Under the pieces are notes generated by a model. The model searched no databases. It was given only the letters and a program-made list of their open reading frames with translations, and had not been told where the DNA came from. Positions 37,925 to 56,584 of a stretch of 64,000 bases of DNA are shown here, piece after piece. The stretch is from Deltaproteobacteria bacterium (GTDB taxonomy: Bacteria; Desulfobacterota; GWC2-55-46). The translations under genes and the position numbers were made by a program. The stretch covers positions 1,262-65,261 of the forward strand of contig JACRET010000001.1 in the NCBI GenBank assembly GCA_016218105.1, read 5' to 3'. Numbering within the stretch: the first letter of the stretch is position 1; every line of letters starts with the position of its first letter.

Positions 37925-37929
37925 TGTAA

Positions 37930-40235: not shown

Positions 40236-40736
40236 GTGACAGTCAAAGACCATGTGATACTCAGTAGCGCCGCTTCCCTGGCGCTCTGGACGGAGCTGGG
40301 CTTTGACGCGATCTTTTTCTGGGTTGCCGCCATCGGCATAGATCTCGACCATTATATAGATTACATCTGGCATAACGGCTTCACGGACTTCGGCATTAAG
40401 AAGATGTTCCTTTACCACCACGTCCTTGAGCGGTTCTGGGGACGGTCCGAGTTCTTGAACGTTGTAATCTTCCATACGGTGGAATTCGTAGCGCCTCTTT
40501 TTGTCATATCGTACTGGACAGGCTCCACGGCGCTCTTTGCCCTCTCTTTGGGGCTTACGTTTCATATAGCGTGCGATATCGTTTTTTTACTCAGGCTCAG
40601 GATATTCCTTATACGGGCGCACTCTTTTACGGAGTACTTCATAAGGAAGCGCCGTTTTGAGAACAGGGGCCTGAAACCGGGGTCCGTATTCGCCGAGGCC
40701 ATAAAAATTGTAAATGAAACCGGCGGGGAAATATGA
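40236..40736 (+). CDS. Membrane protein, putative metal-binding (H..DLDH..H..H..D pattern)
   Basis: Hydrophobic helices with DH, IDLDHY, FHTVE and FHIACD; GTG start adjacent to the upstream stop. Confidence 0.7.
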   Translation: MTVKDHVILSSAASLALWTELGFDAIFFWVAAIGIDLDHYIDYIWHNGFTDFGIKKMFLYHHVLERFWGRSEFLNVVIFHTVEFVAPLFVISYWTGSTALFALSLGLTFHIACDIVFLLRLRIFLIRAHSFTEYFIRKRRFENRGLKPGSVFAEAIKIVNETGGEI

Positions 40737-40772
40737 GATACTTTGCCGAAAAGACCGCGTTGAGAGGTTGGA

Positions 40773-41702
40773 ATGGGAACGACTGAGAAGGTACTGATAA
40801 TAAAGCTCGGATACTCGGAGACCCTTGTCGGGGAGATAAGCAGAAAGACAAGCCTCGGCGACGTGCTGCGGTCAACCGTGCTTTTAAATCTCTTTAAGAA
40901 CGCCAACGTGACATGGCTTGTTGATGAAAAGGCGATATCCCTTCTCAAGGGAAATCCGCTAATAAACCGCATAATGCCCTATGACCTGACCACAGTCCTC
41001 CAGCTTAAGGCAGAGAGGTTCGACACCATCATAAACCTTGAGAAGGTCGCTGGCATCTGCGCGTTCGCGGACTCGCTTACCGCATGGAGGCGTTTCGGTT
41101 TCAGGTTCGATCCTGAAACAGGCAGCGCCATGGCCTATGACGGGAGCCAGCACGTTTTAGAGCTTTGCATGAGCCAGAAGGACAAGCTCGCGAACAAAAA
41201 ATACTGGGAAGACTTCCTCTTTGAGATGGTCGGCGCCAAGTGGCAGGGAGAGATACCCACTATCGGCTACAAGCCGTCCTCGAAAGAGATATTCGACATA
41301 GGCTTTAACCACAATGTCGGCGAGAAGTGGCCGATAAAGGCGTGGCCCCCTGAATACTGGAAGGAGCTTGAGGCCCTTATCGACGGGAAATACACGATAT
41401 CATGGCAGCAGGGGCTTAAGTCCATTGAGGAATACATAGAGTGGATCAACTCGTGCAGGCTGCTGGTCACGAACGACAGCCTCGGGCTCCATATAGCCCA
41501 CGCGCTCAATAAAAAGGTGGTAACGCTTTTCGGCCCCACCCTTTCGACCGAGGTGTATGTAAAAAACGGCGTCAAGCTCCTGCCCGACGCCGTTTATGAC
41601 TGCATGCCCTGCCTGTCCACGACCTGCGTAAAGGAAAGGCCGTGCATGTTTGAAATAAAGCCTGCCAGAGTTCTTTCAGAGATAGATAAATTACTTGGCT
41701 AG
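40773..41702 (+). CDS. Glycosyltransferase family 9 (heptosyltransferase-like)
   Basis: LIIKLG..LGDVLRST, KAWP, TNDSLGLHIAHAL, LFGPT, CMPC...C....CM. Confidence 0.88.
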   Translation: MGTTEKVLIIKLGYSETLVGEISRKTSLGDVLRSTVLLNLFKNANVTWLVDEKAISLLKGNPLINRIMPYDLTTVLQLKAERFDTIINLEKVAGICAFADSLTAWRRFGFRFDPETGSAMAYDGSQHVLELCMSQKDKLANKKYWEDFLFEMVGAKWQGEIPTIGYKPSSKEIFDIGFNHNVGEKWPIKAWPPEYWKELEALIDGKYTISWQQGLKSIEEYIEWINSCRLLVTNDSLGLHIAHALNKKVVTLFGPTLSTEVYVKNGVKLLPDAVYDCMPCLSTTCVKERPCMFEIKPARVLSEIDKLLG

Positions 41703-41712
41703 AGAGGTGGAT

Positions 41713-42588
41713 ATGAAGGACTTGAAACCTATTGCAATACCGGAACACTACAACTATATCGCCGCTTTCATGACCCTTGCCTGCAATCTCTCATGCAGCT
41801 ATTGCATAAACCACTTCGGCAAGGACGGCTTCGTGAAAAAGAGGCTTACGGGAGAGGAATGGGTAAGAGGCCTTAACAGGATAGTGTCGAGGGAAGACCT
41901 TCCGATAACGCTCCAGGGAGGCGAGCCGAGCCTGCACAAGGACTTCATATACATACTTAACAATATAAAGCCTGAGCTTAACATAGACATACTTACGAAC
42001 CTCCAGTTCGACGTTGACGAATTCATAAAAAAGGTAGACCCGAAACGGATCAGGAGAAATTCTCCCTACGCCTCTATAAGGGTCAGCTACCACCCCGAGG
42101 TGATGAAGCTTGAGCCTCTGGTGGAAAAAGTCCTCAAGATGCTTGAAGCGGGGTTCTCGATCGGCATATGGGGCGTACTCCACCCTATCCAGGAGGAAAC
42201 GGTAAGGCAGGCCCAGAAGCACTGCCAGGCGCTTGGTATAGACTTCCGCTTTAAAGAGTTCCTTGGCGAGCATAACGGAAAGATGTACGGGACTTACAGG
42301 TACGAGGGGGCTTGCGACCAGAAGTTTGAAAAGTCTGTCCTCTGCAAAACCACTGAGCTTATAATGGGCAGCGACGGCTCCGTATACCGGTGCCACAGCG
42401 ACCTTTACGAGGGGCGCACCCCTGTCGGCAACATCATCGACCCCGCTTTCGACATAGAGGATATCTACAGGCCCTGCCATGTGTTCGGGCACTGCAACCC
42501 GTGCGACATCAAGGTCAAGACAAACAGGTTCCAGGAGTTCGGCCATACGTCAGTAGAGATAGAGGATATGCCTGTAGAGCACAAGTAA
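41713..42588 (+). CDS. Radical SAM protein
   Basis: CNLSCSYC, GGEP, LTNL, C-terminal C..YRCH..C..CNPCD; ATG behind GAGGTGG. Confidence 0.88.
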   Translation: MKDLKPIAIPEHYNYIAAFMTLACNLSCSYCINHFGKDGFVKKRLTGEEWVRGLNRIVSREDLPITLQGGEPSLHKDFIYILNNIKPELNIDILTNLQFDVDEFIKKVDPKRIRRNSPYASIRVSYHPEVMKLEPLVEKVLKMLEAGFSIGIWGVLHPIQEETVRQAQKHCQALGIDFRFKEFLGEHNGKMYGTYRYEGACDQKFEKSVLCKTTELIMGSDGSVYRCHSDLYEGRTPVGNIIDPAFDIEDIYRPCHVFGHCNPCDIKVKTNRFQEFGHTSVEIEDMPVEHK

Positions 42589-42704: not shown

Positions 42705-44360
42705 TCACCTCTTAAGACGCTTAAGCGCGTCCTCCGCGTATTTATAATCAGGCCATCTCGCAAGTATGTATTTAAACTCCGCTTCAGCTTCCGGCTTTAA
42801 CCCCTTTTTCATATATAATACCCCAAGGTTATAGGAAGGTTCCGGATTGCCAGGGTCGAGCCCCTTCAAGATTCGCGCCTCGCCGATGGCCTCAGCGGTC
42901 ATCCCCAGCGAATCGTAATATTTTACCAGCGTGCGGCGGACATACCGCGACTTCGGGTTTATTTCCTCCGCCTTTTTAAACTCCTCTAACGCCTCGCCGT
43001 GTCTTTCTATCTCGTAATATTTCATTCCAAGATACATATGCGGGCTTACGGAGTAAGGGTTCTTTTTCACCTCGTCCTCGTAGAGCCGCAACGGTACCCT
43101 CCAAAGCTCATTCCTGAAATAAGCGGCAAACGAGAGCGGCACAGCCAGCGCAAGCAAAAGAAACGTCATCAATATCTTCCGCCTGCCCCGGCTCAGGGAG
43201 TCTTCCATATATAAAACCGCTGTAACAAACGACAGCATGATCCCTGCCGATGGGAGATAAACCCTGTGCTCGTTTATGGCATCCCTGATGGGTATTACCG
43301 AGGATTCGACGGAGAGGGTGATAAAAAACCATAACACCCCGAATGATATGATAGACCCGTAGGCATTCCCTTTCATTATGGAGAAGGCAAACATATATAT
43401 GGAGGCGCCGATGAATAAAACAACGGCAATTAAGGGGCCAGACACCCCCGGGTCAAAGACCGATTCCGCAAGCGGGAAATAATACGTAAAATGCTGATCC
43501 ACTGGTAAGATCAAAAGCCTTAAATAGACAAGTATCGCCTGCGGCTCCGTTATCAGGTAATTATACCTGGAGATGGTGAACGCCTCCTCCAGCTTTCGGA
43601 CCCGCATCAGCTCGTCGACCGTATTCACTGCCCCGGTACCCGGGATGACCATGCTTAGAGGTATTATCAGGAGCGTTAAGAAGAACGGCAAGAGGCGTTT
43701 GCCCCTCCCCTCACCTTTCGGAAAGAATGAGAACTCCACGAGAGTCAAGATGAAGGGCAGCGTAAAGCTTATCTCCTTCGACTTCATTGCGAGGACGGCT
43801 GAAAGGACAGCCCCTGCGTAAAGGAGCCTGCCTTTTGTACCCCCCGGTATTCCTGTCCTTGCCTTTAGATAAAGAACCAGAGACAAAAGATAGAAAAGGG
43901 TCGCGAGAGACGTGTATCTCTGGCTTATATAAGAGACCGCCTGTGTCTGTACAGGGTGCGTAAGGAAGTATACCGATGTCGCGAGAGCGGCCGCAAAGGG
44001 AAAAATCTCCCTATCCTTAATATTCGTCTTTATAAAAGGCGTCTCGAAGAGAGCCTTTATAAGCTTAAACACAAGGGCCGAATTGGCTATGTGGATCAAT
44101 ATATTGACGAGGTGATAACCGAACGGATCAAGGCCGGAGAGCTTGTAATTCAAAGCGAAACTGAGGTCTCCAGCATACCTAACGCCGGACACATCCAGAA
44201 AATTCCATAGAGACCTTATCCAGGGCGCCTCCGTAACATACGCCCTGTCATCGAATACGAAATCGCCGAAAAGAGCATTTGAATAGATTATTAGGCCGAG
44301 AGGCAGTAATACGAGATACAAACGGTTACAAGTTATGATTTTTTCATATAGTGTCTTCAA
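42705..44360 (-). CDS. TMTC-like GT-C membrane glycosyltransferase with TPRs
   Basis: FVFDD, YHLVNILIH, HPVQTQAV, KSKEIS, EHRVYLPS, RNELW, TPR tail; directly downstream of pilA. Confidence 0.8.
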   Translation of the reverse strand: MKTLYEKIITCNRLYLVLLPLGLIIYSNALFGDFVFDDRAYVTEAPWIRSLWNFLDVSGVRYAGDLSFALNYKLSGLDPFGYHLVNILIHIANSALVFKLIKALFETPFIKTNIKDREIFPFAAALATSVYFLTHPVQTQAVSYISQRYTSLATLFYLLSLVLYLKARTGIPGGTKGRLLYAGAVLSAVLAMKSKEISFTLPFILTLVEFSFFPKGEGRGKRLLPFFLTLLIIPLSMVIPGTGAVNTVDELMRVRKLEEAFTISRYNYLITEPQAILVYLRLLILPVDQHFTYYFPLAESVFDPGVSGPLIAVVLFIGASIYMFAFSIMKGNAYGSIISFGVLWFFITLSVESSVIPIRDAINEHRVYLPSAGIMLSFVTAVLYMEDSLSRGRRKILMTFLLLALAVPLSFAAYFRNELWRVPLRLYEDEVKKNPYSVSPHMYLGMKYYEIERHGEALEEFKKAEEINPKSRYVRRTLVKYYDSLGMTAEAIGEARILKGLDPGNPEPSYNLGVLYMKKGLKPEAEAEFKYILARWPDYKYAEDALKRLKR

Positions 44361-44484
44361 TTGTCATCCGTTTGAAAACGCATCACGCTCACATTCCAGT
44401 CAGTCTCACGGGAGCGGCAAGGGAATGGAAAATTGCAAACTCCTGATTATTGCCAGGAGTCCGTCTCACAGCGGGTCTTCAATC

Positions 44485-44520
44485 AAAAAAAAAGGAGGGG
44501 TTTTCACCCCTCCTCTCTTT
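44485..44520. terminator. Intrinsic terminator after pilA
   Basis: A-run, GGAGGGG-ttttca-CCCCTCC hairpin; U-tract on the minus strand. Confidence 0.75.
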
Positions 44521-44539
44521 AAACGTATTCAAGATTCAA

Positions 44540-44947
44540 TCAGGGTGAGTTGGCGAATACGATCCTGCCGTTAAAGAATACTACAGTGTTGTTGTCGGTA
44601 AGACCGGCTGCTGTTGTCTTAAGCTCGACGTTGCCCGATGTAAGGTTCATACCACCGTTTACGAAGCTTACGTTAACAGACTTCTGGTAACCGCCAGATT
44701 TAAGCTTGGCAAGGCCGTTGGTGCTGTCCACAGACTGTGCCGGGTTATCGGTAAGATAAGCCTGAGCAGCTGTGTACGCGTTCTTTGCGTCTGAATCGAG
44801 CTCTGTCTTGTACCCTCTCAGCCTGTACTTTGTAAACTGCGGGATGGCGATGGCGGCAAGTATGGCGATGATAGCGACGACTATCAAAAGCTCAACCAGC
44901 GTGAAGCCTTCCTCCCTCTTGATCCTCTTTAGCATCTGTTGCAGCAT
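44540..44947 (-). CDS. pilA: Type IVa major pilin
   Basis: Prepilin G|FTLVELLIVVAIIAILAAIAIPQF; own sigma54 promoter and terminator; inside the pil locus. Confidence 0.92.
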   Translation of the reverse strand: MLQQMLKRIKREEGFTLVELLIVVAIIAILAAIAIPQFTKYRLRGYKTELDSDAKNAYTAAQAYLTDNPAQSVDSTNGLAKLKSGGYQKSVNVSFVNGGMNLTSGNVELKTTAAGLTDNNTVVFFNGRIVFANSP

Positions 44948-45036
44948 ATTTTCCTCCTTCCGGCTTTTGATGAGCAGCTTTTAAGTATCTTCGGCTGTTC
45001 TCTAAAAAACTTGAAACATATTTGACATATATACTT

Positions 45037-45052
45037 AGCAACATCTATGCCA
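45037..45052 (-). promoter_or_regulatory. Sigma54 -24/-12 promoter of pilA
   Basis: Minus strand TGGCATAGATGTTGCT (GG-N10-GC). Confidence 0.85.
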
Positions 45053-45116
45053 AAATAAAATATCTTTTAAGAATGGGTACTTACCCTTTTATAGCGATAC
45101 AAATAATGTACTTAAG

Positions 45117-45152
45117 TGACAATTTTTGTCAGTGTATTGACAATTTTTGTCA
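45117..45152. promoter_or_regulatory. Tandem palindromic upstream activator sites (putative PilR boxes)
   Basis: TGACAATTTTTGTCA at 45117-45131 and 45138-45152, 21 bp apart, upstream of the sigma54 promoter. Confidence 0.7.
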
Positions 45153-45216
45153 GTGAGGGCAGGGTTTGTGGGGGGGGCAAGCTCGTAGCGATGGGATACG
45201 CTCGCAATGACAAATC

Positions 45217-45330
45217 AATTCAATTACCCTGCCATAAATGGCAGGGATTGTCGGCAAGGTACTTTGTTTCTTTCGTATAGCCCGGCTTTGACCCGCCCTA
45301 AAAGGGCGGGATTCCGCCGGGCACCCGATT
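45217..45330. repeat. ~110-bp double-hairpin repeat, copy 2
   Basis: Matches 5612-5722; overlaps the last codons and stop of CDS 45298..47088. Confidence 0.85.
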
Positions 45331-47088
45331 AATGGGTATATCCATGAATCTGCCGCAGCCATCCATATCCCGTTCCAAACAGGATCTTTTAATCCCTGTT
45401 ACAACCTCTTTCATTAAAGGGCTCTTGATGAATTCGGAAAAACCGGGGTAGATTACAGCGGCCTGGTCAAAGTCCTTTAAAGCCTCCTTGTGCCTGCCTG
45501 AGGCCGCGTATGAGATGCCGCGGTTCAGGTATACGATCTCGTAATCACGGTTAAGGGCAAGCGCGGCGCTGAATGACTCTATGGATCTCCTGTGGTCTCC
45601 CAGCCCGGAATACGCCACCCCCCTGAGATTATGCGCCTCGGCTATCTTCGGGTTCATCGAGAGGACCTTATCCGCGTCGTAGAGCGCCTCGGCAAACTTG
45701 TTCTTCTTGAGATTAAGCAGACCCCTGAAGTAATAGAGCCTCGATTTACCGGGGGACTTCCCGATAGAATCGTTAAGGAGCGCCATCTCATCGTTCCATA
45801 CGTTATTTCTCAAGTAAAGCGAGGTGAAGAGCGCCGGGCACAAAATAATGAGCAGCCCGGCAGTCAATACCTTATACGAAATCTTTTTCTCCCTCTTTGA
45901 ATTCAGATATTCGACTGTCCAGAAAACCAGCGAAACAAAGGAGATTAAAAGTCCGACGCTCGGGAGATAAACCCTGTGCTCATATATGAAATCCTGTATA
46001 GGGACAAGGGTGGATTCTACCGATAGGGTTAAAAAGAACCAGAAGACCCCGAAAGGGAAAAGATGCCCCCAGATATTTCCTGTTTTACGGGAAGACCTTA
46101 GAACAAAAAAAGAAATTAAAATGAGAGATGAAAGGAATAAGAAAGACATGAAAGCGGGAGGGTCGAATAAAGACGTCGATACCGGGTAATCGTATTCAAG
46201 CCTCTGCCCTACAGGGAGCAGAAGGAGCCGTATATATGTTACTACCACCTTTAGCTCGGTGAAGAAATAAACGCTCCTGGGGAGCCTCGCGGCCTCGTTT
46301 ATCTGCAGATTCCTCAGGTGCTCGGCGCTTGCGTTATAGTTACCGAAAATCCCGATATCAGGCCCCAGGAGAGTAAGGGGTATTATGACCAGAGTAAAAT
46401 AAAAAGGTATCCTGTAGCGCGCGGAACTCTTTATCTCGGGCCGGAAGAAGACGAACTCATAGAGCGCGATGGCGAATGGCAGCGTAAAGCTTATCTCCTT
46501 TGTCTTCATCGCTATAACGGCCGAGAGCAACGACCCTGCGTAGAAGAGCCGGTTCGCCGTCCCCCCTTTGCCTTGCGCCCAGCCGATCCTCGCCTTCACG
46601 TAAAGAAGCACTGATGATATATAAAAAAAAGCCGCCAGCGAGGTAAACCTCTGGGTCACGTAGCTTACGGCCTGTGATTCTACCGGGTGAGAGAGGAAGA
46701 TAACCGCCGCGATGAATGCGGCATAAACAGAGACCTCATCACTGGCATGTATTCCCTTTATGAAAGGCGTGCGGAAGGTATTTCTTACAAGAGAGAAGAC
46801 AAGAATGGAATTGAGTACGTGTATGAGTATGTTGACGAGATGGAAATCAAACGGGACGAGGCCGCCGGTAGAGTAGTTGAGGGCAAAGCTCAAAAAACCG
46901 ATATACCTTGTGCCTGAGAGGTCCAGAAAATTACCGAGAGACCTTATCTGCCGGTTCGCGAGGACATAAGCCTCGTCATCGTAGACGAAAGGCGCGTTCA
47001 GCACGTTTGAGTACAACAGCACACCCAAAGGGATGAGGAGTAAAGGCAGATATTTAAGGAAGATTTTTTTATCGGGAATATTTTTCAT
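45298..47088 (-). CDS. TMTC-like GT-C membrane glycosyltransferase with TPRs
   Basis: FVYDD, FHLVNILIH, HPVESQAV, KTKEIS, EHRVYLPS, RNNVW, TPR tail; clear paralog of 42705..44360. Confidence 0.8.
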   Translation of the reverse strand: MKNIPDKKIFLKYLPLLLIPLGVLLYSNVLNAPFVYDDEAYVLANRQIRSLGNFLDLSGTRYIGFLSFALNYSTGGLVPFDFHLVNILIHVLNSILVFSLVRNTFRTPFIKGIHASDEVSVYAAFIAAVIFLSHPVESQAVSYVTQRFTSLAAFFYISSVLLYVKARIGWAQGKGGTANRLFYAGSLLSAVIAMKTKEISFTLPFAIALYEFVFFRPEIKSSARYRIPFYFTLVIIPLTLLGPDIGIFGNYNASAEHLRNLQINEAARLPRSVYFFTELKVVVTYIRLLLLPVGQRLEYDYPVSTSLFDPPAFMSFLFLSSLILISFFVLRSSRKTGNIWGHLFPFGVFWFFLTLSVESTLVPIQDFIYEHRVYLPSVGLLISFVSLVFWTVEYLNSKREKKISYKVLTAGLLIILCPALFTSLYLRNNVWNDEMALLNDSIGKSPGKSRLYYFRGLLNLKKNKFAEALYDADKVLSMNPKIAEAHNLRGVAYSGLGDHRRSIESFSAALALNRDYEIVYLNRGISYAASGRHKEALKDFDQAAVIYPGFSEFIKSPLMKEVVTGIKRSCLERDMDGCGRFMDIPINRVPGGIPPF

Positions 47089-47111
47089 GCAGGCGGCTCA
47101 ACGTGCGGGCG

Positions 47112-49361
47112 TCATTTCAGTATCTCGTTCAATGCGCCGCCTTTGGCCGTACCCTTGAATTTATCGGAAAGGTTCTTAAGCACCGCCTTGTATTCAGGCT
47201 TCGTCTCAATCGCCTTGCCGTAATAATAAGCGCCCTCGTCAAGCCCCCCCGTCTCAAAGAGCGAATTGCCTATGTAGTAATATATGTCCCCCAGTTCCTT
47301 CGGATCGTCTATGGCGAACGCGGCCCGTTTGAGGTACGTGACCGCAGGCTCGAAATCCGATGTGTCGAAGTACGACATGCCCAGCGCCTGATAGGCAAAC
47401 GGGTCTGATTCATCGTCAGCCATGATGACGTATTTATTAAGATTGCATATCGCCTCTTTATGGTCCTTCATATCACGGCTTACAAGGCCGAGCGCGAGGT
47501 AGGAGTTTTTGTAGGACTTGTCGCACTTGATAGACGACCAGAAGGCATCTATGGATTCCTTCTGTCTCTTAAGCTTCCCAAGGACAACGCCCATGTCATA
47601 ATAGGTATCCGCGCTCTTGATGACCGAAAGCGCCTTCTTAAACTCCGTTACCGCTTCTTCCATATACTCCCCTCCTAGCATGCTGTCAACCAGCCCGAGG
47701 AGCCTGTGGGGCCTGGCGAACGGCTCGCCGCCCGAATCGGAGATGAACCTCTTAAGCTCGGCCCTTATGGACTTAAGCCCTTCCCTGTCCTCCGGGAGCT
47801 TGTATTTAGGGTCATCAGAGCAGGCGTTAAAGGCCATACCGTGCCTCCCTATGGCTTCCCTATGGCTTTCGGTATTCTTTAAAAAAAGTATGGAGATGTC
47901 ATCGAAGCTTACGGCCTTCCATTCCGGGCTCAGGTGTAAATTCTTGCAGAAGGGGCTGTCCAGCTTTATCAGCGCCATGTCGATGGACAGCTCGGCTACG
48001 AGCCTGTCCCATCTTGCCGGGTTGTTTACGAGCCTCGATTGCCAGAAAAAATAAGGCGAATAGACCGTCGGCGTCCTTCCGTCTATATAGACCTTCGCCT
48101 CGGGATACTCGTATATAAGGTACCCTCCGAAGATGTACTCATTATAGATATTGCCCTTTATCCCTTCTTTTTTCATGAAGGCCACCGTGCCTTCGGGGTA
48201 TTGGCCTTTCTCAAGCCCAAGCCCCAGGCTGCCGCCTATAAAGGCCTTTCCGAAATCAAAGATCATAACGAACGCCAAAAACAGGCTTATGAGCACCGGT
48301 AGTAAAAGATGCGGCTTTTTTCCCCTCGACTTCAGATAATCGTTTATATTGAGCGCCAGCACAGGCCCGGCAAAATATGCGAACAAGGCTATCCATCTCA
48401 CGTGCGAGATTGCCATATACAGCCCTGCCGCCACGAGGAATATCGACCTTGCCTTAAGAGACCTGTAGTTGATTATGAGGGCTATTACGGTAGCGATTAT
48501 CAGCAGCTCAAAGGCGAAGTGATCGAGCGGAAAAGGATACAGATAGAAAAAAAGCTCTTTTAGGCCGGGTTTTGTCCACTCGCCGATATGCTTTATGGCG
48601 TCCGCATTGTCCACGCCGTGATGTATGAAAGGGAAGATGACCAGCTTGGGGCCGTAGGGGTTGATAAGGGAGACCGCCGGCAAGGCGACGGCCGCGCCTA
48701 TCATGCTTTTGAGCTTCCCGGAGAGGTCGCCCTTCAAGCCCTGCCTCCGTATCGTATCAATCACCTCGCCTGCCGCGTAAGCCCCGGCTATAAATATACC
48801 GAGTATCGCGCTTGAATGCACGTTGACCCATATCACCTGCAAGGGCAAAAGCGCCAGCAGATATAAAAGCTTACCCTTACGCTCATAAAGCGTGAATAAA
48901 AGGAGATACAGGGATACGAAAAAATACTCAAAGAGATGGGGGCGTATAAAAAGCCTGGTATGCGAGCATACGAAGACAAGGTAGAGTATCGGGATTACAA
49001 GCCAGATATCCCCTGCTGTATGCCTTAGATTGCGGTAAAGGAAGATGAATGTGAATGTGACGAGTATTACCTGAAGTATGAAAAGGCCCTGCCACCCTCC
49101 GAGCCAGGTGAAGAAAAAATAAGTCAATACCTGAAAGCCCCAGGTAAAATCAACCCAGGGTTTTCCGCCGAAGGTGTATGAGAACGGGTCGGTAAAGGGT
49201 ACCTTGAGGTTGGATGTGATCCATTCGCCGCTTTTAAGGGCCCAGAATATGTCCGTGTCCCAGTGCTGTTTCTGGTATGAGACAAGGATTATAAGGATGC
49301 CGAGTACCGCGAACAGGATCGCTGCCAGTACCCTGGTGATGCGGCTACTCGGGGATTTCAT
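47112..49361 (-). CDS. Multi-TM membrane protein with TPRs, probable GT-C of a second family
   Basis: DTDIFWALKSGEWI..DPFSYT..W, RPHLF, WVNVH, INPYG, EW, GGYLIY..YIDGR, C-terminal TPRs; overlaps the pilR stop by 17 bp. Confidence 0.7.
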   Translation of the reverse strand: MKSPSSRITRVLAAILFAVLGILIILVSYQKQHWDTDIFWALKSGEWITSNLKVPFTDPFSYTFGGKPWVDFTWGFQVLTYFFFTWLGGWQGLFILQVILVTFTFIFLYRNLRHTAGDIWLVIPILYLVFVCSHTRLFIRPHLFEYFFVSLYLLLFTLYERKGKLLYLLALLPLQVIWVNVHSSAILGIFIAGAYAAGEVIDTIRRQGLKGDLSGKLKSMIGAAVALPAVSLINPYGPKLVIFPFIHHGVDNADAIKHIGEWTKPGLKELFFYLYPFPLDHFAFELLIIATVIALIINYRSLKARSIFLVAAGLYMAISHVRWIALFAYFAGPVLALNINDYLKSRGKKPHLLLPVLISLFLAFVMIFDFGKAFIGGSLGLGLEKGQYPEGTVAFMKKEGIKGNIYNEYIFGGYLIYEYPEAKVYIDGRTPTVYSPYFFWQSRLVNNPARWDRLVAELSIDMALIKLDSPFCKNLHLSPEWKAVSFDDISILFLKNTESHREAIGRHGMAFNACSDDPKYKLPEDREGLKSIRAELKRFISDSGGEPFARPHRLLGLVDSMLGGEYMEEAVTEFKKALSVIKSADTYYDMGVVLGKLKRQKESIDAFWSSIKCDKSYKNSYLALGLVSRDMKDHKEAICNLNKYVIMADDESDPFAYQALGMSYFDTSDFEPAVTYLKRAAFAIDDPKELGDIYYYIGNSLFETGGLDEGAYYYGKAIETKPEYKAVLKNLSDKFKGTAKGGALNEILK

Positions 49362-50745
49362 ATTTGCTAAGTTTGTACCTCATCGATCTGAAGGACAGGC
49401 CGAGAAGCTCAGCCGCCCTCTTTTTTACGCCACCTGACTTCTTGAGAGCATCTATTATAATAGCCTTTTCAAATTCTTCAATAGTCTTTTCAAGGTCTAC
49501 GCCTCCGGAAGGAACAGGCACGCCAATACCGGGGTTCGCGAGGTTCGCCGCGCCGTGGACGGTTTCCGCCCGCTCCCTTAGATACGATGGAAGGCTCTCC
49601 GTGGTGATGATATCCGTGGTTTCAAGCGCCACCGCCCGCTCCATTATATTTTCAAGCTCGCGGACGTTGCCCGAATAATCGTATTCAACAAGGCATTTGA
49701 GCGCCCCTTCCGAAAGCCTTTTTATATTTTTGCCGTGCTCCAGGCTGAACTTCTCCAAAAAATATCTTGATAGCGCCGGAATATCTTCCTTCCGCTCCCT
49801 TAAAGGGGGCAGGCCTATCCTTATCACGTTGAGCCTGTAGAAGAGGTCCTCCCTGAACCTTCCGGCCTTGACCTCGGCCTCAAGGTCTTTGTTTGACGCG
49901 GCTATAAGCCTTATGTCCACGGAGATATCGGCTGTGGCTCCGACCCTCCTGAAATTCCTCTCCTGAATAAAACGAAGGAGTTTTACCTGGAGGTGAAGCG
50001 GCAGCTCAGTCAATTCATCGAGAAAAAGCGTCCCTCCGTCCGCCTGCTCCGCCAGCCCCTCTTTGTTCGCGACAGCGCCGGTAAAGGCCCCCTTCTGGTG
50101 GCCGAAAAGCTCGCTCTCAAGGAGGTTTTCAGGTATGGCGCCGCAGTTTATCGCGACGAACGGCTTGTCCTTCCTGTCGCTCTCCAAGTGTATCGCCCTG
50201 GCGACCAGCTCCTTGCCCGTGCCGCTTTCTCCTGTAACGAAAACATTGGTCTTGGTCTTCGCGATACTCATTATGAAACTGTATATCTCGGCCATCCTGG
50301 GACTCGTGCCCACAATATTGGAGAAACCGTATTTTGTCTTAAGGTCTTTTTTAAGAAGCCTGTTCTCAAGCTCAAGGCTCCTAAGCTTAAGCGCCTTCTT
50401 TATGTTGAGCTTTATTTCATCTATGTTAAAGGGCTTTGTAAAGTAATCGTAAGCGCCCGCCTTCATCGCCTCTATCGCGGTCTCAACCGACGCGTAAGCA
50501 GTTATCATTATGACGAGCGTGTCAGGATCAAGCTCTTTTAAAGCCTTTAGGAAATCCACCCCCCCCATGCCAGGCATCCTGATATCGCTTATTACAAGGT
50601 CAACAGGGTTGTCCCTGCAGAAGTCGAGCGCCGCCTTCGCGCTGTCCATTCCCCTGGCGCCGTAGCCTTCCTTGCGGAGCATTATTTCGAGGAACTCCCG
50701 CATGTCCCTTTCGTCATCGACTATGAGTATATTTACTTTTGCCAT
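49345..50745 (-). CDS. pilR: Sigma54-dependent response regulator PilR
   Basis: Receiver domain, [26 protein letters not shown]; follows pilS. Confidence 0.9.
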   Translation of the reverse strand: MAKVNILIVDDERDMREFLEIMLRKEGYGARGMDSAKAALDFCRDNPVDLVISDIRMPGMGGVDFLKALKELDPDTLVIMITAYASVETAIEAMKAGAYDYFTKPFNIDEIKLNIKKALKLRSLELENRLLKKDLKTKYGFSNIVGTSPRMAEIYSFIMSIAKTKTNVFVTGESGTGKELVARAIHLESDRKDKPFVAINCGAIPENLLESELFGHQKGAFTGAVANKEGLAEQADGGTLFLDELTELPLHLQVKLLRFIQERNFRRVGATADISVDIRLIAASNKDLEAEVKAGRFREDLFYRLNVIRIGLPPLRERKEDIPALSRYFLEKFSLEHGKNIKRLSEGALKCLVEYDYSGNVRELENIMERAVALETTDIITTESLPSYLRERAETVHGAANLANPGIGVPVPSGGVDLEKTIEEFEKAIIIDALKKSGGVKKRAAELLGLSFRSMRYKLSKYEIPE

Positions 50746-50751: not shown

Positions 50752-52416
50752 TTAGCCTATAACCCTTTCCCTTTCGACCGGCAAGGCGATCCTGAAAGCA
50801 GTGCCTTGCCCCAGAACGCTTTTGACCTCTATGCTGCCGCTGTGGCTCTCTATTATCCTGTGCACCATCGCAAGCCCGAGACCCGTGCCGAAGTCCTTTG
50901 TGGAAAAGAACGGATCGAATATCCTGTTCAAGTCCTCCGGCCTGATCCCCTTGCCTGTGTCAATCACTTCTATCAATGCGAAGGAAGCTTCATCCCCGCC
51001 TCCCCCGCCGGGCCTCCCCCATCCAAGGCTGGCGGAGACATTCAAAACTCCCCCCCCTTCCATGGCGTGGGCCGCGTTAAGGAACAGGTTCCAGAATACC
51101 TGCCCCAATTGTCTCGCGTCACCCTTGAGCATCAGCCTTTCCACGACGCCGCTTTTTATGTCGATTGAAGCGGCTTCGGGGGAGTTCCTGAAAATCCTTA
51201 TCGTCTCGTCTATCACTGAGCTCAGATCGATCAATTCCCTTTTCTCCTTCGCGGGTTTCGCGAAAAGGAGATAGTCGGTGATAAGGAGATTAAGACGGTC
51301 AGTCTCGCGCAAGACTATATCCATGAGCTTAAGGTCCTCTCCGCTCAAATCCAGTTCCTCCTTAAGAAGCTGGATAGAGCCGCTTATGGAAGCGAGCGGA
51401 TTTCTTATCTCGTGGGCTATGCCTATGGATATCTCACCAAGGGCCTTTAATTTTTCATCCCTTCTGAGCTGCTCTTCCATGGCCTTTAGCCGGGTCAGGT
51501 TCTGGAATATTATTATATTCGAGGCGTCCCCGCCCTGCCCCTCCGAGATGGAAAAGCCGAGGTATACCTCTTCCCCGTCTTTCCTCCTGAACCTCTTCTC
51601 GATCCTGATGCCGCTGAGATCCTTCCTGTTGCCGTCCAGCATCCCGGGGAATATCTCGTTAACGTCCCTGTAATAAACCTCCTTCAGCGTATACCCGGTT
51701 ACAAGCTCCGCCTCTCTGTTGAAGGAGGTGATGCGAAGCCTCTCGTCAAGCGTCATTATGCCGCTTGTGATATTCTCAACGATATGCCTGTTTAACTGCT
51801 CCAGCGCCTCAAAGTCTATCTCCTTTTCTTCAAGCTCCCTCTCCACCCTGGCTGCCTTCTCGGCAAGATAGCCGGTGAGATAAGCGACGGTAAAGAATGC
51901 GAGTATGTTCGTAGCTACGGTGGTAAATACGTCCTCCCACCTCTGGACAGGCATCGAATGTATCACTTTAAACCTGGCGGGCAGCATCCTGTAAAAATCC
52001 ATGTCTATCAGTATGCCGTACGAGATGCTTGAAAAAGAAGCGGCGAAAAGCCCGCCCCGCTTGCTTAAAAGTATCGCGGCGCCGATGACGGAAAGCGGAT
52101 AAAGCGTCTGGAGGTAGCTCTCCGTTCCGCCGGTGATGTAGACAATTACGGTGATGAGGATTATGTCTATCGCTACCTGGAGATATGTAAAGAGGCGTAA
52201 ATTAGCTATCCTCTTGATGGCAAGCGAGTAGATGATCGTGAGGAAACCGGTCGTGACGACTATCCCATAGAGGGGGTAGAAGTTCAGTCTGGTGAGTGAA
52301 TATTCCTTTATCTGGAACCAGGTGGTTATGCCGAGGAATGCAAGCGCAAGCACAACCCTTAAGACCATCATGGCCAGGAGTTTCTGCCTAAGCGCCTGTG
52401 GATTTGTTACAAACAT
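50752..52416 (-). CDS. pilS: Sensor histidine kinase PilS
   Basis: Multi-TM N-terminus with TGG..S, PAS, AHEIRNPLASISGS; pilC-pilS-pilR order. Confidence 0.9.
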   Translation of the reverse strand: MFVTNPQALRQKLLAMMVLRVVLALAFLGITTWFQIKEYSLTRLNFYPLYGIVVTTGFLTIIYSLAIKRIANLRLFTYLQVAIDIILITVIVYITGGTESYLQTLYPLSVIGAAILLSKRGGLFAASFSSISYGILIDMDFYRMLPARFKVIHSMPVQRWEDVFTTVATNILAFFTVAYLTGYLAEKAARVERELEEKEIDFEALEQLNRHIVENITSGIMTLDERLRITSFNREAELVTGYTLKEVYYRDVNEIFPGMLDGNRKDLSGIRIEKRFRRKDGEEVYLGFSISEGQGGDASNIIIFQNLTRLKAMEEQLRRDEKLKALGEISIGIAHEIRNPLASISGSIQLLKEELDLSGEDLKLMDIVLRETDRLNLLITDYLLFAKPAKEKRELIDLSSVIDETIRIFRNSPEAASIDIKSGVVERLMLKGDARQLGQVFWNLFLNAAHAMEGGGVLNVSASLGWGRPGGGGGDEASFALIEVIDTGKGIRPEDLNRIFDPFFSTKDFGTGLGLAMVHRIIESHSGSIEVKSVLGQGTAFRIALPVERERVIG

Positions 52417-52421: not shown

Positions 52422-53645
52422 TTAGCCCGCCGCGGCCCCCGCGATCTGGAATATCGGAAGATACAGAGCTATAACCAGTCCGCCGACGACTATGCCGAGG
52501 AACGCCATAAGAAGCGGCTCGATAAGAGAGGTCAGCGCGTCCACCGCCGCGTCAACTTCCTCTTCATAAAAATCAGCTATCTTCGTGAGCATCGCGTCGA
52601 GCGCCCCTGTCTGTTCGCCGACGGCTATCATCTGTGTGACCATCCCAGGGAAAACCTTTGTTTCCATAAGCGGGTCGGCCAGCGTTTTACCCTGGCTCAA
52701 GCTCGTGCGGGCCTTCATAATGGCTTCTTCTATTATTACGTTCCCCGAAGTTTTGGAGACTATCTCAAGCCCCTCAAGGATTGGCACGCCGCTGGACAAC
52801 ATCGTGCCGAGCGTGCGCGTGAACCTCGCAACCGCCGACTTCCTGACCAGATCGCCCGCCACAGGCGCCTTCAGGATAAGGGCGTCCATTATTCTCCTGC
52901 CCTTTGGCACCTTATAGAACCTGTTGATGGCGATACCCGTGCCGACCAACCCTGCTATTATAAAATGCCAGTAGCTCTGAAGCGCCTTGCTTAGATTGAC
53001 TACCAGCTGGGTCGGCGCAGGCAGCGCCTGGCCGAACCCCGCGAACATACTCTCGAATATGGGAACAACCCATAGGAGGAGTCCCGCGACTACCAGGCAC
53101 GCTATTATGATAACCGCGCTCGGATAGGTCATCGCGCCTTTTATCTTACCTTTGAGTTTTTCTGATTTTTCTAGAAAACCAGAGAGCCTGTTCAAGATCG
53201 TGTCGAGTATGCCGCCTATTTCTCCGGCGGCGATGAGGTTTACGTACAGTTGGTCAAATACCTTCGGGTGCTTGCGCAGCGCGTCGGCAAAGGTGGAGCC
53301 GCCTTCGACCGAGCCCTTTACATCCATAAGCACCTTTTTGAATTCAACGTTATCCTGCTGGCTGGCGAGTATATCGAGACATTGCACGAGCGGGAGACCC
53401 GCGTCGATCATCGTGGCAAACTGGCGGCTGAAGACGACAAGGTCTTTTGTCTTTATTCTTGTACCGAGCCCTGGGATCTGAATGCTGCTTAGAGATGAAA
53501 GGCCGCCTTTTTTCTGGCTTATAGAGGCCGGCACTATCTGCTGCCTCCGGAGAGCCGCCGTAGCCTGGGCCAGGTTAGCGGCCTGAAGCTCGCCTTTCTT
53601 CATTTCACCGCTGACGGTCTTGCCTGTATACGCGAATGTCGGCAT
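52422..53645 (-). CDS. pilC: Type IV pilus inner membrane platform protein PilC
   Basis: FSRQFATMIDAGLPL, AGEIGGILD, AMTYP, GEQTGALD, LIEP, LYLPIF. Confidence 0.96.
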   Translation of the reverse strand: MPTFAYTGKTVSGEMKKGELQAANLAQATAALRRQQIVPASISQKKGGLSSLSSIQIPGLGTRIKTKDLVVFSRQFATMIDAGLPLVQCLDILASQQDNVEFKKVLMDVKGSVEGGSTFADALRKHPKVFDQLYVNLIAAGEIGGILDTILNRLSGFLEKSEKLKGKIKGAMTYPSAVIIIACLVVAGLLLWVVPIFESMFAGFGQALPAPTQLVVNLSKALQSYWHFIIAGLVGTGIAINRFYKVPKGRRIMDALILKAPVAGDLVRKSAVARFTRTLGTMLSSGVPILEGLEIVSKTSGNVIIEEAIMKARTSLSQGKTLADPLMETKVFPGMVTQMIAVGEQTGALDAMLTKIADFYEEEVDAAVDALTSLIEPLLMAFLGIVVGGLVIALYLPIFQIAGAAAG

Positions 53646-53648
53646 CGC

Positions 53649-54770
53649 CTAGCTCCTGCCTGTGGGCGGCCCGCTTCTTAAGACGCCGGCGTTTATCATC
53701 ATCTGCCGGAGCTCATCGGGCTCCGAGCTTCTGCCGAGCGCCTCTTCAAGGGTTATAAGCCGCCTGGAGTAAAGGTTCATGAAGCTCTGATTCATCGTCT
53801 GCATCCCGAACTTTGATTGCCCGACCTGCATCTGAGAGTATATCTGGTGCACCTTGTCTTCCCTGATAAGGTTGCGTATCGCGGCGTTCGGGATCATTAT
53901 CTCCATCGACACGACCCTGCCTTTTCCGTCGGCCCTGGGTATCAGGAGCTGGGAAAGAACGGCCTCAAGGACGAATGAAAGCTCCGCCCTTACCTGCGGC
54001 TGCTGATGGGAAGGGAAGACGTCTATGACCCTATTTATGGTCTGTACGCATGAATTAGTGTGAAGCGTGGCGAAACAAAGATGCCCTGTCTCGGCTATGG
54101 TCAGCGCCGTCTCGATAGTTTCCATATCCCTAAGCTCTCCGAGGAGAACAACGTCAGGGTCCTGCCGGAGCACATATTTGAGGGCTTTTTTAAAGGCGTG
54201 CGTGTCGTAGCCGACCTCCCTCTGGTTTACAAGCGCCGTCTTTGAGTTATGCAGATATTCAATCGGGTCTTCTACCGTTATAATATGCTCGGCGCGATCT
54301 GTGTTTATCTTGTCTATCATGGAAGCCAGCGTCGTTGATTTACCGCTCCCCGTAGGCCCTGTAACAAGGACGAGCCCTCTTGGCTTCTTGCATAACTCCT
54401 CGATTATCGGGGGCAGCCCCAATTCCTGGAACGATTTGATCTTGAAGGGGATCGTCCTGAATACGCCCGCCACAGTTCCTCTCTGGACGAACAGATTGCC
54501 CCTGAAGCGGCTTAAGCCCTTTATTCCAAACGAAAAGTCAAGCTCGTTCTCCTCTTCGAACTTGTGTTTCTGAACATCGGCAAGGATACTGTAACAGAGC
54601 TGTTTTGATTCGACCCCCGTAAGTTGAGGGGCGTTTATGGGAGAAAGCTTGCCGTGTATCCTTATCCTCGGCGCCGAGCCGGCCGCGACATGCAGATCGC
54701 TTCCGCCCTGATCCACCATTATCCTCAGGAGTTCCTGCAGATTTAATTTTGAACCGCCTTCAGTTCCCAC
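53649..54770 (-). CDS. pilT: Type IV pilus retraction ATPase PilT
   Basis: GSDLH, GPTGSGKSTT, LRQDPD, AETGHL..TLHT, AIRNLIRE, GMQT. Confidence 0.96.
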   Translation of the reverse strand: MGTEGGSKLNLQELLRIMVDQGGSDLHVAAGSAPRIRIHGKLSPINAPQLTGVESKQLCYSILADVQKHKFEEENELDFSFGIKGLSRFRGNLFVQRGTVAGVFRTIPFKIKSFQELGLPPIIEELCKKPRGLVLVTGPTGSGKSTTLASMIDKINTDRAEHIITVEDPIEYLHNSKTALVNQREVGYDTHAFKKALKYVLRQDPDVVLLGELRDMETIETALTIAETGHLCFATLHTNSCVQTINRVIDVFPSHQQPQVRAELSFVLEAVLSQLLIPRADGKGRVVSMEIMIPNAAIRNLIREDKVHQIYSQMQVGQSKFGMQTMNQSFMNLYSRRLITLEEALGRSSEPDELRQMMINAGVLRSGPPTGRS

Positions 54771-54886
54771 TTATCCTCCGATGCACGGATACCGCCTGAT
54801 ATATTATATTAAATTATCAGGCAAATAATTGTAATGACAAAAGTTACAGGATGAATGCGCCGCCATATCCATTAAAAACCAGGGTT

Positions 54887-56584
54887 TCAGTCCGCCATTG
54901 TCACCCTTAAGACCTCTTCTATCGTGGTGACCCCTTCGCCGACCTTGGTTATCCCGCTCATCCTGAGTGACTTCATCCCGTCTTTTATGGACGCCCTTTT
55001 TATTTCGGCTGTCGAGGCGCCGTTTAAAACAAGTTCTTTAATGGTTTCGGTAAACGGCATTACCTCGTAAAGGGCTATCCTGCCCTTGTAGCCCGTGCCG
55101 CCGCACACCGCGCAGCCGCTCCCCTTGCAGACATCCATCTTTTGAGCTTCCGATTGAGGCACTCCGAGGTCGATCAACACCTTCTCCGTTATCGGCATCT
55201 TTACCTTGCAGTCCTTGCATATCTTGCGCGCGAGCCTCTGCGCTAGTATCAGGTTGCAGGATGAAGAGACGAGGAACGGCTCTATGCCCATGTTCAGCAG
55301 CCTGTTTACCGTAGACGGGGCGTCATTGGTGTGGAGGGTTGAAAGTACCATATGGCCTGTCAGGGCGGCCTTTATCGCTATTTCGGCAGTCTCGTAGTCC
55401 CTTATCTCCCCGACCATTATGATATCGGGGTCCTGTCTTAGAAAACTCCTCAGGGAAGCGGCGAAATTCAGCCCTATATCCTCATGCATCTGTACCTGAT
55501 TGATGCCCATGAGGTTAAATTCGACCGGGTCTTCCGCGGTCGAGATGTTCTCGCTTATCTTATTCAGTTCCGACAGGGCGGAGTAAAGCGTCGTCGTCTT
55601 GCCGCTGCCTGTCGGCCCCGTGACAAGGACTATCCCCCACGGCTTATGTATGGCGTTCATGAAGTCCTTAAGCGCCTTTTCCTCGAACCCGAGTTTCGTC
55701 ATGTCGAGCTGAAGGTTGCTCTTGTCCAGGAGCCTTAGGACGACCTTCTCGCCGAAGAGCGTAGGCAGTACGGAGACCCTGTAATCCATCTCCTTGTTCT
55801 TGGAGAGCTTAAGCTTTATACGGCCGTCCTGAGGCAGCCTCCTCTCGGCGATATCGAGCTGGCTCATGATCTTTATCCTCGATACTATCGCGTTCTTAAG
55901 CTTCATCGGGGGCTTCATCACTTCCATCAAAATACCGTCTATCCTGTACCTTACGCGGAAGTGCTTTTCATACGGCTCTATATGAATATCGCTGGCGCCC
56001 TTCTTTATCGCGTCAGTAAGGATCAGGTTCACGAGCTTTACGACCGGCGCGTCTTCGACGGCTTTTTTAAGGTCAGTGAGGTCAACCTCCTCCTCGTCCT
56101 TTATGATCTCCATCTCACCTTCGTCAAATTCGGTGAGCACGCCCTCAAGCCCCATCTCAGGGCTCTCATAGAGCTTCTCGATAGAGGTTTTTATAGCCGC
56201 GTCGGATGCCACAAGAGGCTCGACATTGTAGCCTGTTAAGAATTTAATGTCGTCTATGGCGAATATATTCGAGGGGTCGGCCATTGCTACGACCAGGGTA
56301 GAGCCTGTCCTGCTTATGGGTACTACCTGGTATTTTTGAGCGACATCTTCTGGGATGAGCTTGATGATCTCGTGGTCTATTTCCTGGGCCGAAAGGTCTA
56401 TCGTAGGAATGCCGTATTGGCGGCTTAAAAATGCGGTTAAGTCTTTTTCGGTGATAAAGCCGAGCTTTGTAAGATTATACCCGAGCCTGCCACCGCTTTT
56501 TTTCTGCTCTTCGATGGCTTTCTTAAGCTGTTCAGGTGAAATTAACTTTTCTCTAAGTAAAAGCTCGCCTATCCTGTCGGTCAT
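54887..56584 (-). CDS. pilB: Type IV pilus assembly ATPase PilB
   Basis: RIGELL and RLG N-terminal motifs, ASDIHIEP, ERRLPQDGR, GPTGSGKTTT, LRQDPD, Cys4 zinc site. Confidence 0.96.
   Translation of the reverse strand: MTDRIGELLLREKLISPEQLKKAIEEQKKSGGRLGYNLTKLGFITEKDLTAFLSRQYGIPTIDLSAQEIDHEIIKLIPEDVAQKYQVVPISRTGSTLVVAMADPSNIFAIDDIKFLTGYNVEPLVASDAAIKTSIEKLYESPEMGLEGVLTEFDEGEMEIIKDEEEVDLTDLKKAVEDAPVVKLVNLILTDAIKKGASDIHIEPYEKHFRVRYRIDGILMEVMKPPMKLKNAIVSRIKIMSQLDIAERRLPQDGRIKLKLSKNKEMDYRVSVLPTLFGEKVVLRLLDKSNLQLDMTKLGFEEKALKDFMNAIHKPWGIVLVTGPTGSGKTTTLYSALSELNKISENISTAEDPVEFNLMGINQVQMHEDIGLNFAASLRSFLRQDPDIIMVGEIRDYETAEIAIKAALTGHMVLSTLHTNDAPSTVNRLLNMGIEPFLVSSSCNLILAQRLARKICKDCKVKMPITEKVLIDLGVPQSEAQKMDVCKGSGCAVCGGTGYKGRIALYEVMPFTETIKELVLNGASTAEIKRASIKDGMKSLRMSGITKVGEGVTTIEEVLRVTMAD

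Follow-up and report, generated by a model that had tools for sequence, protein, structure and literature searches.

The stretch of DNA analysed here, a window of 64,000 nucleotides (nt) from contig JACRET010000001.1 of an uncultured Deltaproteobacteria bacterium of sulfate-reducer type (assembly GCA_016218105.1; Desulfobacterota, GWC2-55-46), holds a type IV pilus locus in which the pilin gene pilA stands among three genes for large membrane proteins. The list of open reading frames (ORFs) and their Pfam matches give the minus-strand gene order pilB-pilT-pilC-pilS-pilR-ORF749-ORF596-pilA-ORF551 (Table 1), in a genome of 2.87 Mb and 104 contigs. All three large proteins, ORF749, ORF596 and ORF551, carry C-terminal tetratricopeptide repeats (TPRs) recognized by Pfam, and it is their likely enzymatic nature and their tie to the pilin PilA that concern us here.

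The spacing of the genes suggests two transcription units around pilA. The end of pilR overlaps the start of ORF749 by 17 nt, and 23 nt separate the end of ORF749 from the start of ORF596; from this spacing we infer that ORF749, and in this genome also ORF596, is packed and co-transcribed with pilSR. By its sequence elements, pilA appears to be a PilR/sigma-54-type unit of its own, with a promoter, candidate PilR sites and a terminator. The sigma-54 pattern TGGCAY-N5-TTGCW has a single match in the window, against 0.15 expected by chance, and 33 of 35 related loci have it upstream of pilA as well. The palindrome TGACA-N5-TGTCA, present in each of two direct repeats and upstream of pilA in 26 of the 35 loci, is a candidate binding site for PilR. 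Directly 3' of pilA, a hairpin with a fold energy of -23.5 kcal/mol (z -4.58) was equalled in stability by none of 200 shuffles. Between ORF596 and the regulatory region of pilA there are two further GC-rich hairpins (45227-45310, minus strand). The first, CCCGCCC-TTTTA-GGGCGGG, spans the ORF596 stop codon and the second is CCCTGCCA-TTTA-TGGCAGGG; they may be terminators or repeat elements.

Table 1. Features of the pilA locus, in order of transcription, with positions in the window.
Feature	Position	Strand	Basis or remark
pilB	54887-56584	-	Pfam T2SSE/T2SSF scan; pilus ATPases and platform protein pilC-pilT-pilB together occupy 52422..56584, upstream of pilS
pilT	53649-54770	-	ATPase; Pfam T2SSE/T2SSF scan
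pilC	52422-53645	-	Pilus platform protein; Pfam T2SSF/T2SSE scan
pilS, sensor kinase	50752-52416	-	Pfam 6TM_PilS 1.4e-19, HisKA, HATPase_c
pilR, sigma-54-dependent response regulator	49345-50745	-	Pfam Response_reg, Sigma54_activat 4.2e-72, HTH_8
ORF749, predicted GT-C-fold membrane protein with TPRs	47112-49361	-	Between pilR and ORF596
ORF749 D35-T36-D37 codons, DxD-type motif just after transmembrane helix 1	49251..49259	-	Ortholog alignment; position after helix 7-28
ORF749 C-terminal TPR domain (residues ~549-749)	47115-47717	-	AF2 model and Pfam TPR matches
ORF596, predicted TMTC/PMT-like GT-C	45298-47088	-	11 transmembrane helices and C-terminal TPRs (residues ~434-573)
ORF596 FVYDD codons (residues 34-38)	46975..46989	-	Matches TMTC motif M1
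Two 18-nt direct repeats, 21 nt apart, each with the palindrome TGACA-N5-TGTCA	45117..45155	-	Candidate PilR sites
Sigma-54-type element TGGCAT-N5-TTGCT	45037..45052	-	~90 nt upstream of the pilA ATG
pilA, major type IVa pilin	44540-44947	-	Pfam N_methyl 1.1e-8; 135-aa prepilin
Intrinsic-terminator hairpin and U-run	44487..44520	-	Directly 3' of pilA
ORF551, second predicted TMTC/PMT-like GT-C, TTG start	42705-44360	-	42% identical to ORF596; ~180 nt downstream of pilA; TPR Pfam matches
ORF551 FVFDD codons (residues 34-38)	44247-44261	-	Sequence

PilA has the features of a type IVa major pilin: a G/FTLxE signal, a hydrophobic N-terminal helix, a pilBTC-pilSR context and a sigma-54 promoter. 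The prepilin has 135 amino acids, the mature form 121, and there is no cysteine. It matches the NCBIfam model of Myxococcus-type PilA at 2.8e-16, under that model's cut-off, and all 32 sequences of an alignment share the class III signal residues G14, F15, T16, L17 and E19. Across 42 aligned PilA sequences the mature protein measures 115-126 amino acids, cysteine is absent, serine and threonine make up 11-21% of residues, and a conserved threonine lies within a common G-x-M-T-L stretch. Several loci (L057, L061, L062, L076, L084 and L091, and likewise L039, L045, L047 and L048) have a tandem pair of pilA paralogs behind the ORF749 homolog in place of a single gene.

ORF596 and ORF551 share 42% of 532 aligned residues (E 2e-125) and belong to a very large family. 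From 1.84 billion cluster representatives, the membrane domain of ORF596 retrieved 36,198 at E ≤ 1e-3, of which 3,964 reach E ≤ 1e-30. In an alignment of 32 rows (ORF596, ORF551 and 30 of 150 listed representatives), D37, D38, R61, H90, H134, P135, Q146, R147, K197, E198, T202, E370, R372 and Y374 are invariant throughout. The membrane domains of ORF749, ORF596 and ORF551 match no glycosyltransferase family in Pfam even at E ≤ 10, and it is the predicted fold that points to an enzyme. In the AF2 model of ORF596 (pLDDT 88.9, pTM 0.89), 11 long membrane helices come first, and residues 434-573 then form TPR helices. The top match of this model in a VIA search is yeast Pmt1-Pmt2 (Z 21.3, 371 residues aligned, root-mean-square deviation 4.8), followed by Pmt4 (Z 20.0), AglB (19.7), ArnT (18.6), STT3 (17.5) and PglB (16.6); TPR-only rows, at Z 13.1 or less, stand under the GT-C rows. 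The GT-C fold surfaced only by the VIA search. When the whole model was compared with the PDB by Foldseek, TPR matches swamped the list, and both the full-length family profile and a phmmer search with ORF596 found only TPR proteins among PDB sequences. By this modelling ORF596 is predicted to have a GT-C fold, and we count ORF551 as a GT-C because it is 42% identical to ORF596.

The fungal protein O-mannosyltransferases of family GT39 (PMTs; Pmt1-Pmt2 and Pmt4) are thus the best structural matches of ORF596, yet there is no match to Pfam PMT or PMT_2. A pair of acidic residues in the first lumenal loop is a feature of PMTs that ORF596 shares through D37 and D38, which in the model lie just after the first transmembrane helix in the first extracytoplasmic loop. 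PMTs also have a MIR domain; a TPR domain takes that place in ORF596, and the odd number of transmembrane helices and the Lys-rich N-terminus suggest that it lies on the non-cytoplasmic side. In a protein-language-model Atlas, which we treat as a lead only, the nearest named clusters are bacterial PMT_2 (0.98), with a chordate TMTC_DUF1736 cluster at 0.93 and rank 21.

The first-pass annotation of this window had called the two paralogs TMTC-like, a label that fits their architecture and core motifs and fails as strict family membership on the Pfam signature. Seven motifs, M1 to M7, are tabulated for the TMTC proteins (Table 4 of PMC7801869). Judged against that table, ORF596 and ORF551 have in common with the animal protein O-mannosyltransferases TMTC1-4 the 11 transmembrane helices, a lumenal or periplasmic C-terminal TPR domain, M1, M4 and an approximate M7 (PMC7801869). 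M1 (DD, in extracytoplasmic loop EL1) corresponds to D37 D38 and M4 (KE(T/Q)xxT, EL3) to K197 E198 ... T202, each invariant in 32 of 32 family members; M7 (ERxxY, EL5) corresponds to the equally invariant E370-H-R372-x-Y374, with the arginine shifted by one position. The bacterial proteins differ in being periplasmic and in the remaining motifs. M2 (SHKSYRP) has a partial counterpart in S-G-T-R-Y-x-G (R61 in 32/32, Y62 in 27/32), and of M3 (RxD) only R147 is present, without the aspartate. M5 (DW) as such was not seen, with D300 followed by Tyr or Phe as a possible counterpart (Asp in 26/32), and M6 (PxxP) was not located in the 32-member alignment. At E ≤ 10 the ORF596 and ORF551 membrane domains matched no Pfam family of any kind, PF08409 (TMTC_DUF1736) included, and PF08409 was not among the 25 most frequently matched of the 76 Pfam families found in the 32 members.

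ORF749 is a protein of another kind. Its BLASTP similarity to ORF596 is confined to the TPR part; we assign the two to different GT-C families. It occurs in one copy in the genome; a search for relatives returned 201 proteins at E ≤ 1e-5, and the best 120 of these 201 are named just 'tetratricopeptide repeat protein' or 'hypothetical'. The AF2 model (pLDDT 85.9) shows about 13 membrane helices, an alpha/beta periplasmic domain (residues ~390-510) and TPRs (~549-749). The VIA search with this model returned STT3 (Z 18.0, 459 residues aligned, residues 4-498), DPY19 (Z 17.2, 468), Pmt4 (Z 16.6), ArnT (Z 15.2, 438), AglB (Z 15.1, 433) and PglB (Z 14.4, 449), the GT-C rows being interleaved with TPR-only matches. 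By shape, then, ORF749 is predicted to be a GT-C of STT3/DPY19 type, and it has in common with the STT3/PglB/AglB and DPY19 group the GT-C core and the periplasmic domain that follows it (about 430-470 residues aligned, Z 14.4-18.0) as well as a DxD-type motif after the first transmembrane helix. Within this motif D35 and D37 (H-W-D-x-D) are invariant in 20 of 20 orthologs, together with many polar loop residues, and a catalytic role for both would follow the pattern of GT-C enzymes in general. The periplasmic domain of STT3, PglB and AglB carries a WWDYG motif, which none of the 20 orthologs has; we therefore rejected membership of the N-oligosaccharyltransferase family, from which ORF749 also differs in its extra TPR domain. 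C-mannosylation of the DPY19 type is unlikely for PilA because the mature pilin is nearly free of tryptophan: a single C-terminal Trp, in locus L086, occurs among the 42 aligned sequences. We consider it very probable that ORF749, ORF596 and ORF551 are all GT-C glycosyltransferases.

The neighbourhood of ORF749 is conserved. Homologs occur in 27 of 41 genomes (this one and 40 relatives), and the order pilS-pilR-ORF749-pilA is kept in all 20 regions that were fetched, which were chosen by their ORF749 match and partly overlap the larger set described here. A scan of 185,579 species genomes yielded 43 loci with an ORF749 homolog. In 41 of them, all close relatives with an ORF749 identity of 40-61%, pilR lies directly upstream (41/41), and pilA lies directly downstream wherever the contig continues (35/35), the other six contigs ending inside or just after the gene. 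Of the three genes, ORF749 is the conserved partner of pilA: throughout an order-level clade of Thermodesulfobacteriota it keeps its place behind pilR and ahead of pilA. The remaining two loci, both from Desulfofervidaceae, are arranged differently: here two N_methyl pilin genes in tandem precede an ORF749 homolog of 32% identity, and pilR is absent. In one of them (L090, 4411-11307) the homolog is followed by a 548-amino-acid membrane protein and a GT2-methyltransferase fusion in overlapping reading frames; in the other (L089, 1565-8046) the scan covered the two pilin genes, and the ORFs after them agree in size and order. The 548-amino-acid protein matches no known family, and single-sequence hhalign comparisons with two family alignments of this analysis showed no relation to either.

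These two loci bear directly on what ORF749 does. It might not be an enzyme, or not only an enzyme, and might instead act as a membrane-anchored TPR scaffold in pilus assembly or in PilS-PilR signalling, for instance by sensing the pilin pool of the inner membrane. Such a role would explain why the gene is packed with pilSR, overlapping pilR by 17 nt and preceding both the repeats that resemble PilR sites and the sigma-54 promoter from which pilA would be read, and TPR proteins that serve pilus biogenesis do exist (PilF, PilW and Tgl, which are weak, TPR-only matches here). The Desulfofervidaceae homologs, however, keep the pilin as a neighbour without pilSR, at least one of them with a GT2 downstream. 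We regard this as the best individual argument for taking the pilin, rather than the regulator, as the functional partner of ORF749. The invariant D35 and D37 after the first transmembrane helix and the invariant polar loop residues also form the pattern of an active GT-C, and the full GT-C core with its periplasmic domain aligns with STT3/DPY19 over about 460 residues. A scaffold therefore seems to us improbable.

The association of the TMTC-like genes with pilA is looser. Eight of the 35 pilA loci are uninformative on this point, as their contigs run on for no more than about 750 nt past pilA; among the 27 informative loci, a TMTC-like gene adjoins pilA in 11 (L049, L050, L051, L053, L054, L056, L057, L065, L068, L078 and L085). 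The gene corresponding to ORF551 is absent downstream of pilA even in the same-genus loci L049, L050 and L053. In L083 (7726-9372) a different multi-pass membrane protein of 548 amino acids, with no Pfam match and unrelated to the Desulfofervidaceae protein of the same length, takes the position directly after pilA, in the same orientation, that a TMTC-like gene occupies in other relatives; this might be another glycosyltransferase.

Because the genome holds 20 copies of the TMTC-like family, a single adjacency to pilA is weak evidence. The flanking of pilA by ORF596 and ORF551 could be a functionally meaningless by-product of expansion and mobility in this multi-copy family, which here forms tandem arrays of three copies on contig C82, five on C86 and two on C45; the missing ORF551 in the same-genus loci would agree with that. 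A maximum-likelihood tree was built from 38 rows: 11 of the 20 paralogs of this genome, 12 pilA-adjacent genes of relatives and 15 of the 150 representatives. It leaves out the nine most distant of the genome's own paralogs, samples the paralogs of relatives incompletely and includes related genomes that are not independent. All 14 pilA-adjacent copies fall into one clade of 19 rows (support 100/99), whose other five rows are four representatives of unspecified context and one own paralog on contig C5; eight own paralogs lie outside it, and in 500 shuffles of the labels the number of changes on the tree was never as low. The ORF551 lineage comprises seven copies, all downstream of pilA (support 100/100), from loci whose ORF749 shares just 45-61% identity with the one studied here. 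In the ORF596 lineage, copies stand upstream of pilA in this genus and downstream of it in L056, L057 and L085, and since adjacency is kept while the side changes, the linkage argues for selection. Set against this pattern, a mere by-product of family expansion is very improbable. Copy number differs widely from genome to genome: in the relative G007, three paralogs were found at E ≤ 1e-20, the best of which is the pilA-adjacent copy.

The first-pass annotation had described TMTC-like paralogs on both sides of pilA, with a third GT-C-like gene between them and pilR, and had linked these genes to the pilin. The layout was correct down to the coordinates and the FVFDD and FVYDD motifs of the 42%-identical pair, the third gene is borne out by the match of the ORF749 model to STT3/DPY19, and the link to the pilin by the conserved synteny. 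What shifts is the emphasis: the TMTC-like pair had been placed at the centre of the system, and the survey of pilA neighbourhoods, with its TMTC-like adjacency in 11 of 27 loci, gives ORF749 as the fixed partner instead. The annotation had also set the locus apart from TfpW as a known mechanism of pilin glycosylation, a contrast that was overstated, TfpW being itself a GT-C with TPRs beside pilA (10.1101/2020.04.19.049825).

Several known systems help to place the locus, and TfpW is the closest. TfpW of the Pseudomonas (para)aeruginosa group IV strains Pa5196 and PA7 is described as a pilin D-arabinofuranosyltransferase and a GT-C with 11 predicted transmembrane helices; its first periplasmic loop carries a DDX motif, and its C-terminal TPR domain is periplasmic. 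The gene comes directly after pilA, and when it is lost the pilin is no longer glycosylated (10.1101/2020.04.19.049825). The homologs listed there come from five genera, Azotobacter, Acinetobacter, Teredinibacter, Pseudomonas and Kingella (10.1101/2020.04.19.049825). Compared by architecture, TfpW and ORF596/ORF551 have in common the 11 transmembrane helices, the acidic motif in loop 1, the C-terminal TPRs and the adjacency to pilA, and the proline-rich motif given for TfpW near its TPR domain, YX6PFX7P, occurs in none of 32 ORF596 relatives and none of 20 ORF749 orthologs. The five genera belong to the Gamma- and Betaproteobacteria, and our locus belongs to the Thermodesulfobacteriota. A membrane GT-C with TPRs beside pilA is thus already known; what differs here is the lineage, the number of enzymes, three of two GT-C families, the unannotated STT3/DPY19-like family of ORF749, whose gene is fixed between pilR and pilA, and the lack of the proline motif of TfpW.

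TfpO/PilO and PglL, pilin O-oligosaccharyltransferases of the Wzy_C family, likewise work in the periplasm with lipid-linked donors, and tfpO is described as a neighbour of pilA (10.1101/2020.04.19.049825). They differ in fold and family, and no Wzy_C Pfam match was found in ORF749, ORF596 or ORF551. The cyanobacterial pilin-modifying Ogt was considered as a precedent and rejected, as that enzyme is described as a GT41 rather than a GT-C (PMC9306852). The literature searched, also with Desulfobacterota and Geobacter in view, yielded no account of this arrangement and no study giving the bacterial TMTC/PMT-like family a substrate.

By analogy with TfpW, periplasmic O-glycosylation of the pilin is the best reading of the locus: type IVa pilin genes combined with three GT-C enzymes that would face the periplasm and use lipid-linked sugar donors. 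A polyprenyl-phosphate sugar would be made on the cytoplasmic face of the inner membrane by a GT2 enzyme and then flipped across. Mature PilA would wait in the inner membrane, anchored by its N-terminal helix, and the GT-C enzymes would move the sugar onto serines or threonines of its periplasmic globular part before assembly. Catalysis would fall to the acidic motifs of the first periplasmic loop, DxD in ORF749 and DD in ORF596 and ORF551, while the TPR domains, of a type by which such enzymes grip a protein substrate, and in ORF749 also the alpha/beta domain, may hold PilA in place. ORF749 would then be the core pilin transferase, with the TMTC-like ORF596 and ORF551 as accessory enzymes adding sites or sugars. 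On gene context and fold, we lean towards the view that at least one of the three proteins modifies PilA.

A number of observations pull the other way. The case for a modified pilin is built on gene context and fold, and neither NCBIfam nor Pfam has a glycosyltransferase model that matches ORF749, ORF596 or ORF551, with TPRs the only matches in the last two. ORF749 is packed with pilSR rather than with pilA, an arrangement that would fit a regulatory or an assembly role too. A sugar-donor gene was not found in the cluster itself. The TMTC-like family in particular is neither confined to pilA nor always present beside it. Twenty ORFs of at least 300 amino acids match the family's membrane-domain profile in this genome; two other paralog regions that were scanned adjoin unrelated genes (glycine cleavage, LptFG, AspRS), and the neighbours of a family member are therefore no general guide to its substrate. 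Sixteen of the 27 informative loci, each with at least 2 kb of sequence beyond pilA, have no adjoining TMTC-like gene, and the complete relative G039 has no TMTC-like paralog at E ≤ 1e-20 anywhere in its genome.

Much of this would also suit enzymes that glycosylate other envelope targets, whether in general O-glycosylation of periplasmic and outer-membrane proteins or on glycolipids and lipopolysaccharide in the manner of ArnT, with the position beside pilA being inherited gene order that says nothing of the substrate. The 20 copies seem for the most part to adjoin unrelated genes, pilA has no TMTC-like neighbour in 16 of the 27 informative relatives, and both the ORF596 and the ORF749 model match ArnT, which modifies lipid A. 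Inherited order, however, sits poorly with an ORF749 homolog that stands beside a pilin in 35 of 35 continuing loci and again in the two Desulfofervidaceae loci, where the context is different. Nor does it sit well with pilA-adjacent TMTC-like genes that form one clade and yet occupy differing sides of pilA, which suggests that the linkage is selected. TPR domains, moreover, suit a protein substrate better than a lipid, as in OGT and TMTC. We hold other envelope targets to be unlikely as the explanation of the locus.

If pilin O-glycosylation is indeed the function, it is tempting to speculate further that ORF749 represents an unannotated family of pilin-dedicated GT-Cs which, together with the pilA-linked TMTC-like clade, forms a multi-enzyme, site-specific pathway; we offer this tentatively, as a possibility rather than an expectation. 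Within such a pathway the TMTC-like enzymes might target a C-terminal Ser/Thr-Pro of PilA. This ending (for example ...ANSP) is found in 11 of 13 PilAs whose locus has a TMTC-like neighbour gene and in 2 of 21 from the 16 loci without one, and it occurs in 1 of 8 from loci whose contig ends soon after pilA. The correlation is exploratory and serves as a lead, as the groups largely follow phylogeny.

Where the donor sugar would come from is a separate matter. Two glycosyltransferase genes of the window had been proposed as its source, and nothing links either of them to pilA. The first, a Ppm1-like GT2 gene (14631-15413), lies 30 kb away. It resembles polyprenyl-phosphate sugar synthases (PpgS 6.6e-19, AglJ, ArnC-type), all below curated cut-offs, and directly downstream of it is ORF543, a distant TMTC-like paralog with C-terminal TPRs that is 27% identical to ORF596 (12984-15413 for the two genes, minus strand). 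The GT2 and ORF543 look like a synthase-transferase pair, and it is plausible that the GT2 is a donor synthase for the TMTC-like family in general. The second, a GT2 gene at 37930, has an ambiguous family match and is part of a plus-strand cluster convergent with the pilA locus (34749-42588). This cluster encodes a radical SAM/SPASM protein, the alpha and beta subunits of a thiamine pyrophosphate (TPP)-dependent E1, the GT2, a B12-binding radical SAM protein, a 166-amino-acid ORF without a family, a GT9 heptosyltransferase-like protein and a further radical SAM protein; it may comprise genes for glycolipid or sugar modification. ORFs of matching sizes (about 285, 307, 169 and 491 amino acids) are convergent to pilA in at least seven related loci (L060, L064, L069, L077, L080, L082 and L086), a comparison made by ORF size, in which the two ORFs nearest pilA in L060 were the only ones scanned and proved to be radical SAM and GT9.

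In summary, a conserved link to one small surface protein, PilA, would offer a tractable enzyme-substrate pair for the TMTC/PMT-like family. If the multi-enzyme pathway is real, PilA would be the first concrete substrate for this very large bacterial family. Because ORF749-type enzymes are annotated just as TPR proteins, pilin glycosylation may be overlooked when genomes of this clade are annotated. Glycans on pilins alter the surface chemistry of the pilus. In Pseudomonas, pilin glycans are described as protecting against pilus-specific phages (10.1101/150227), and shielding from phages at the present locus, which the first-pass annotation had raised, would by analogy be a matter of speculation. 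Moreover, glycosylation of the pilin here would bear on phage-host ecology and on attachment in the sulfate-reducer lineages of groundwater and sediment.

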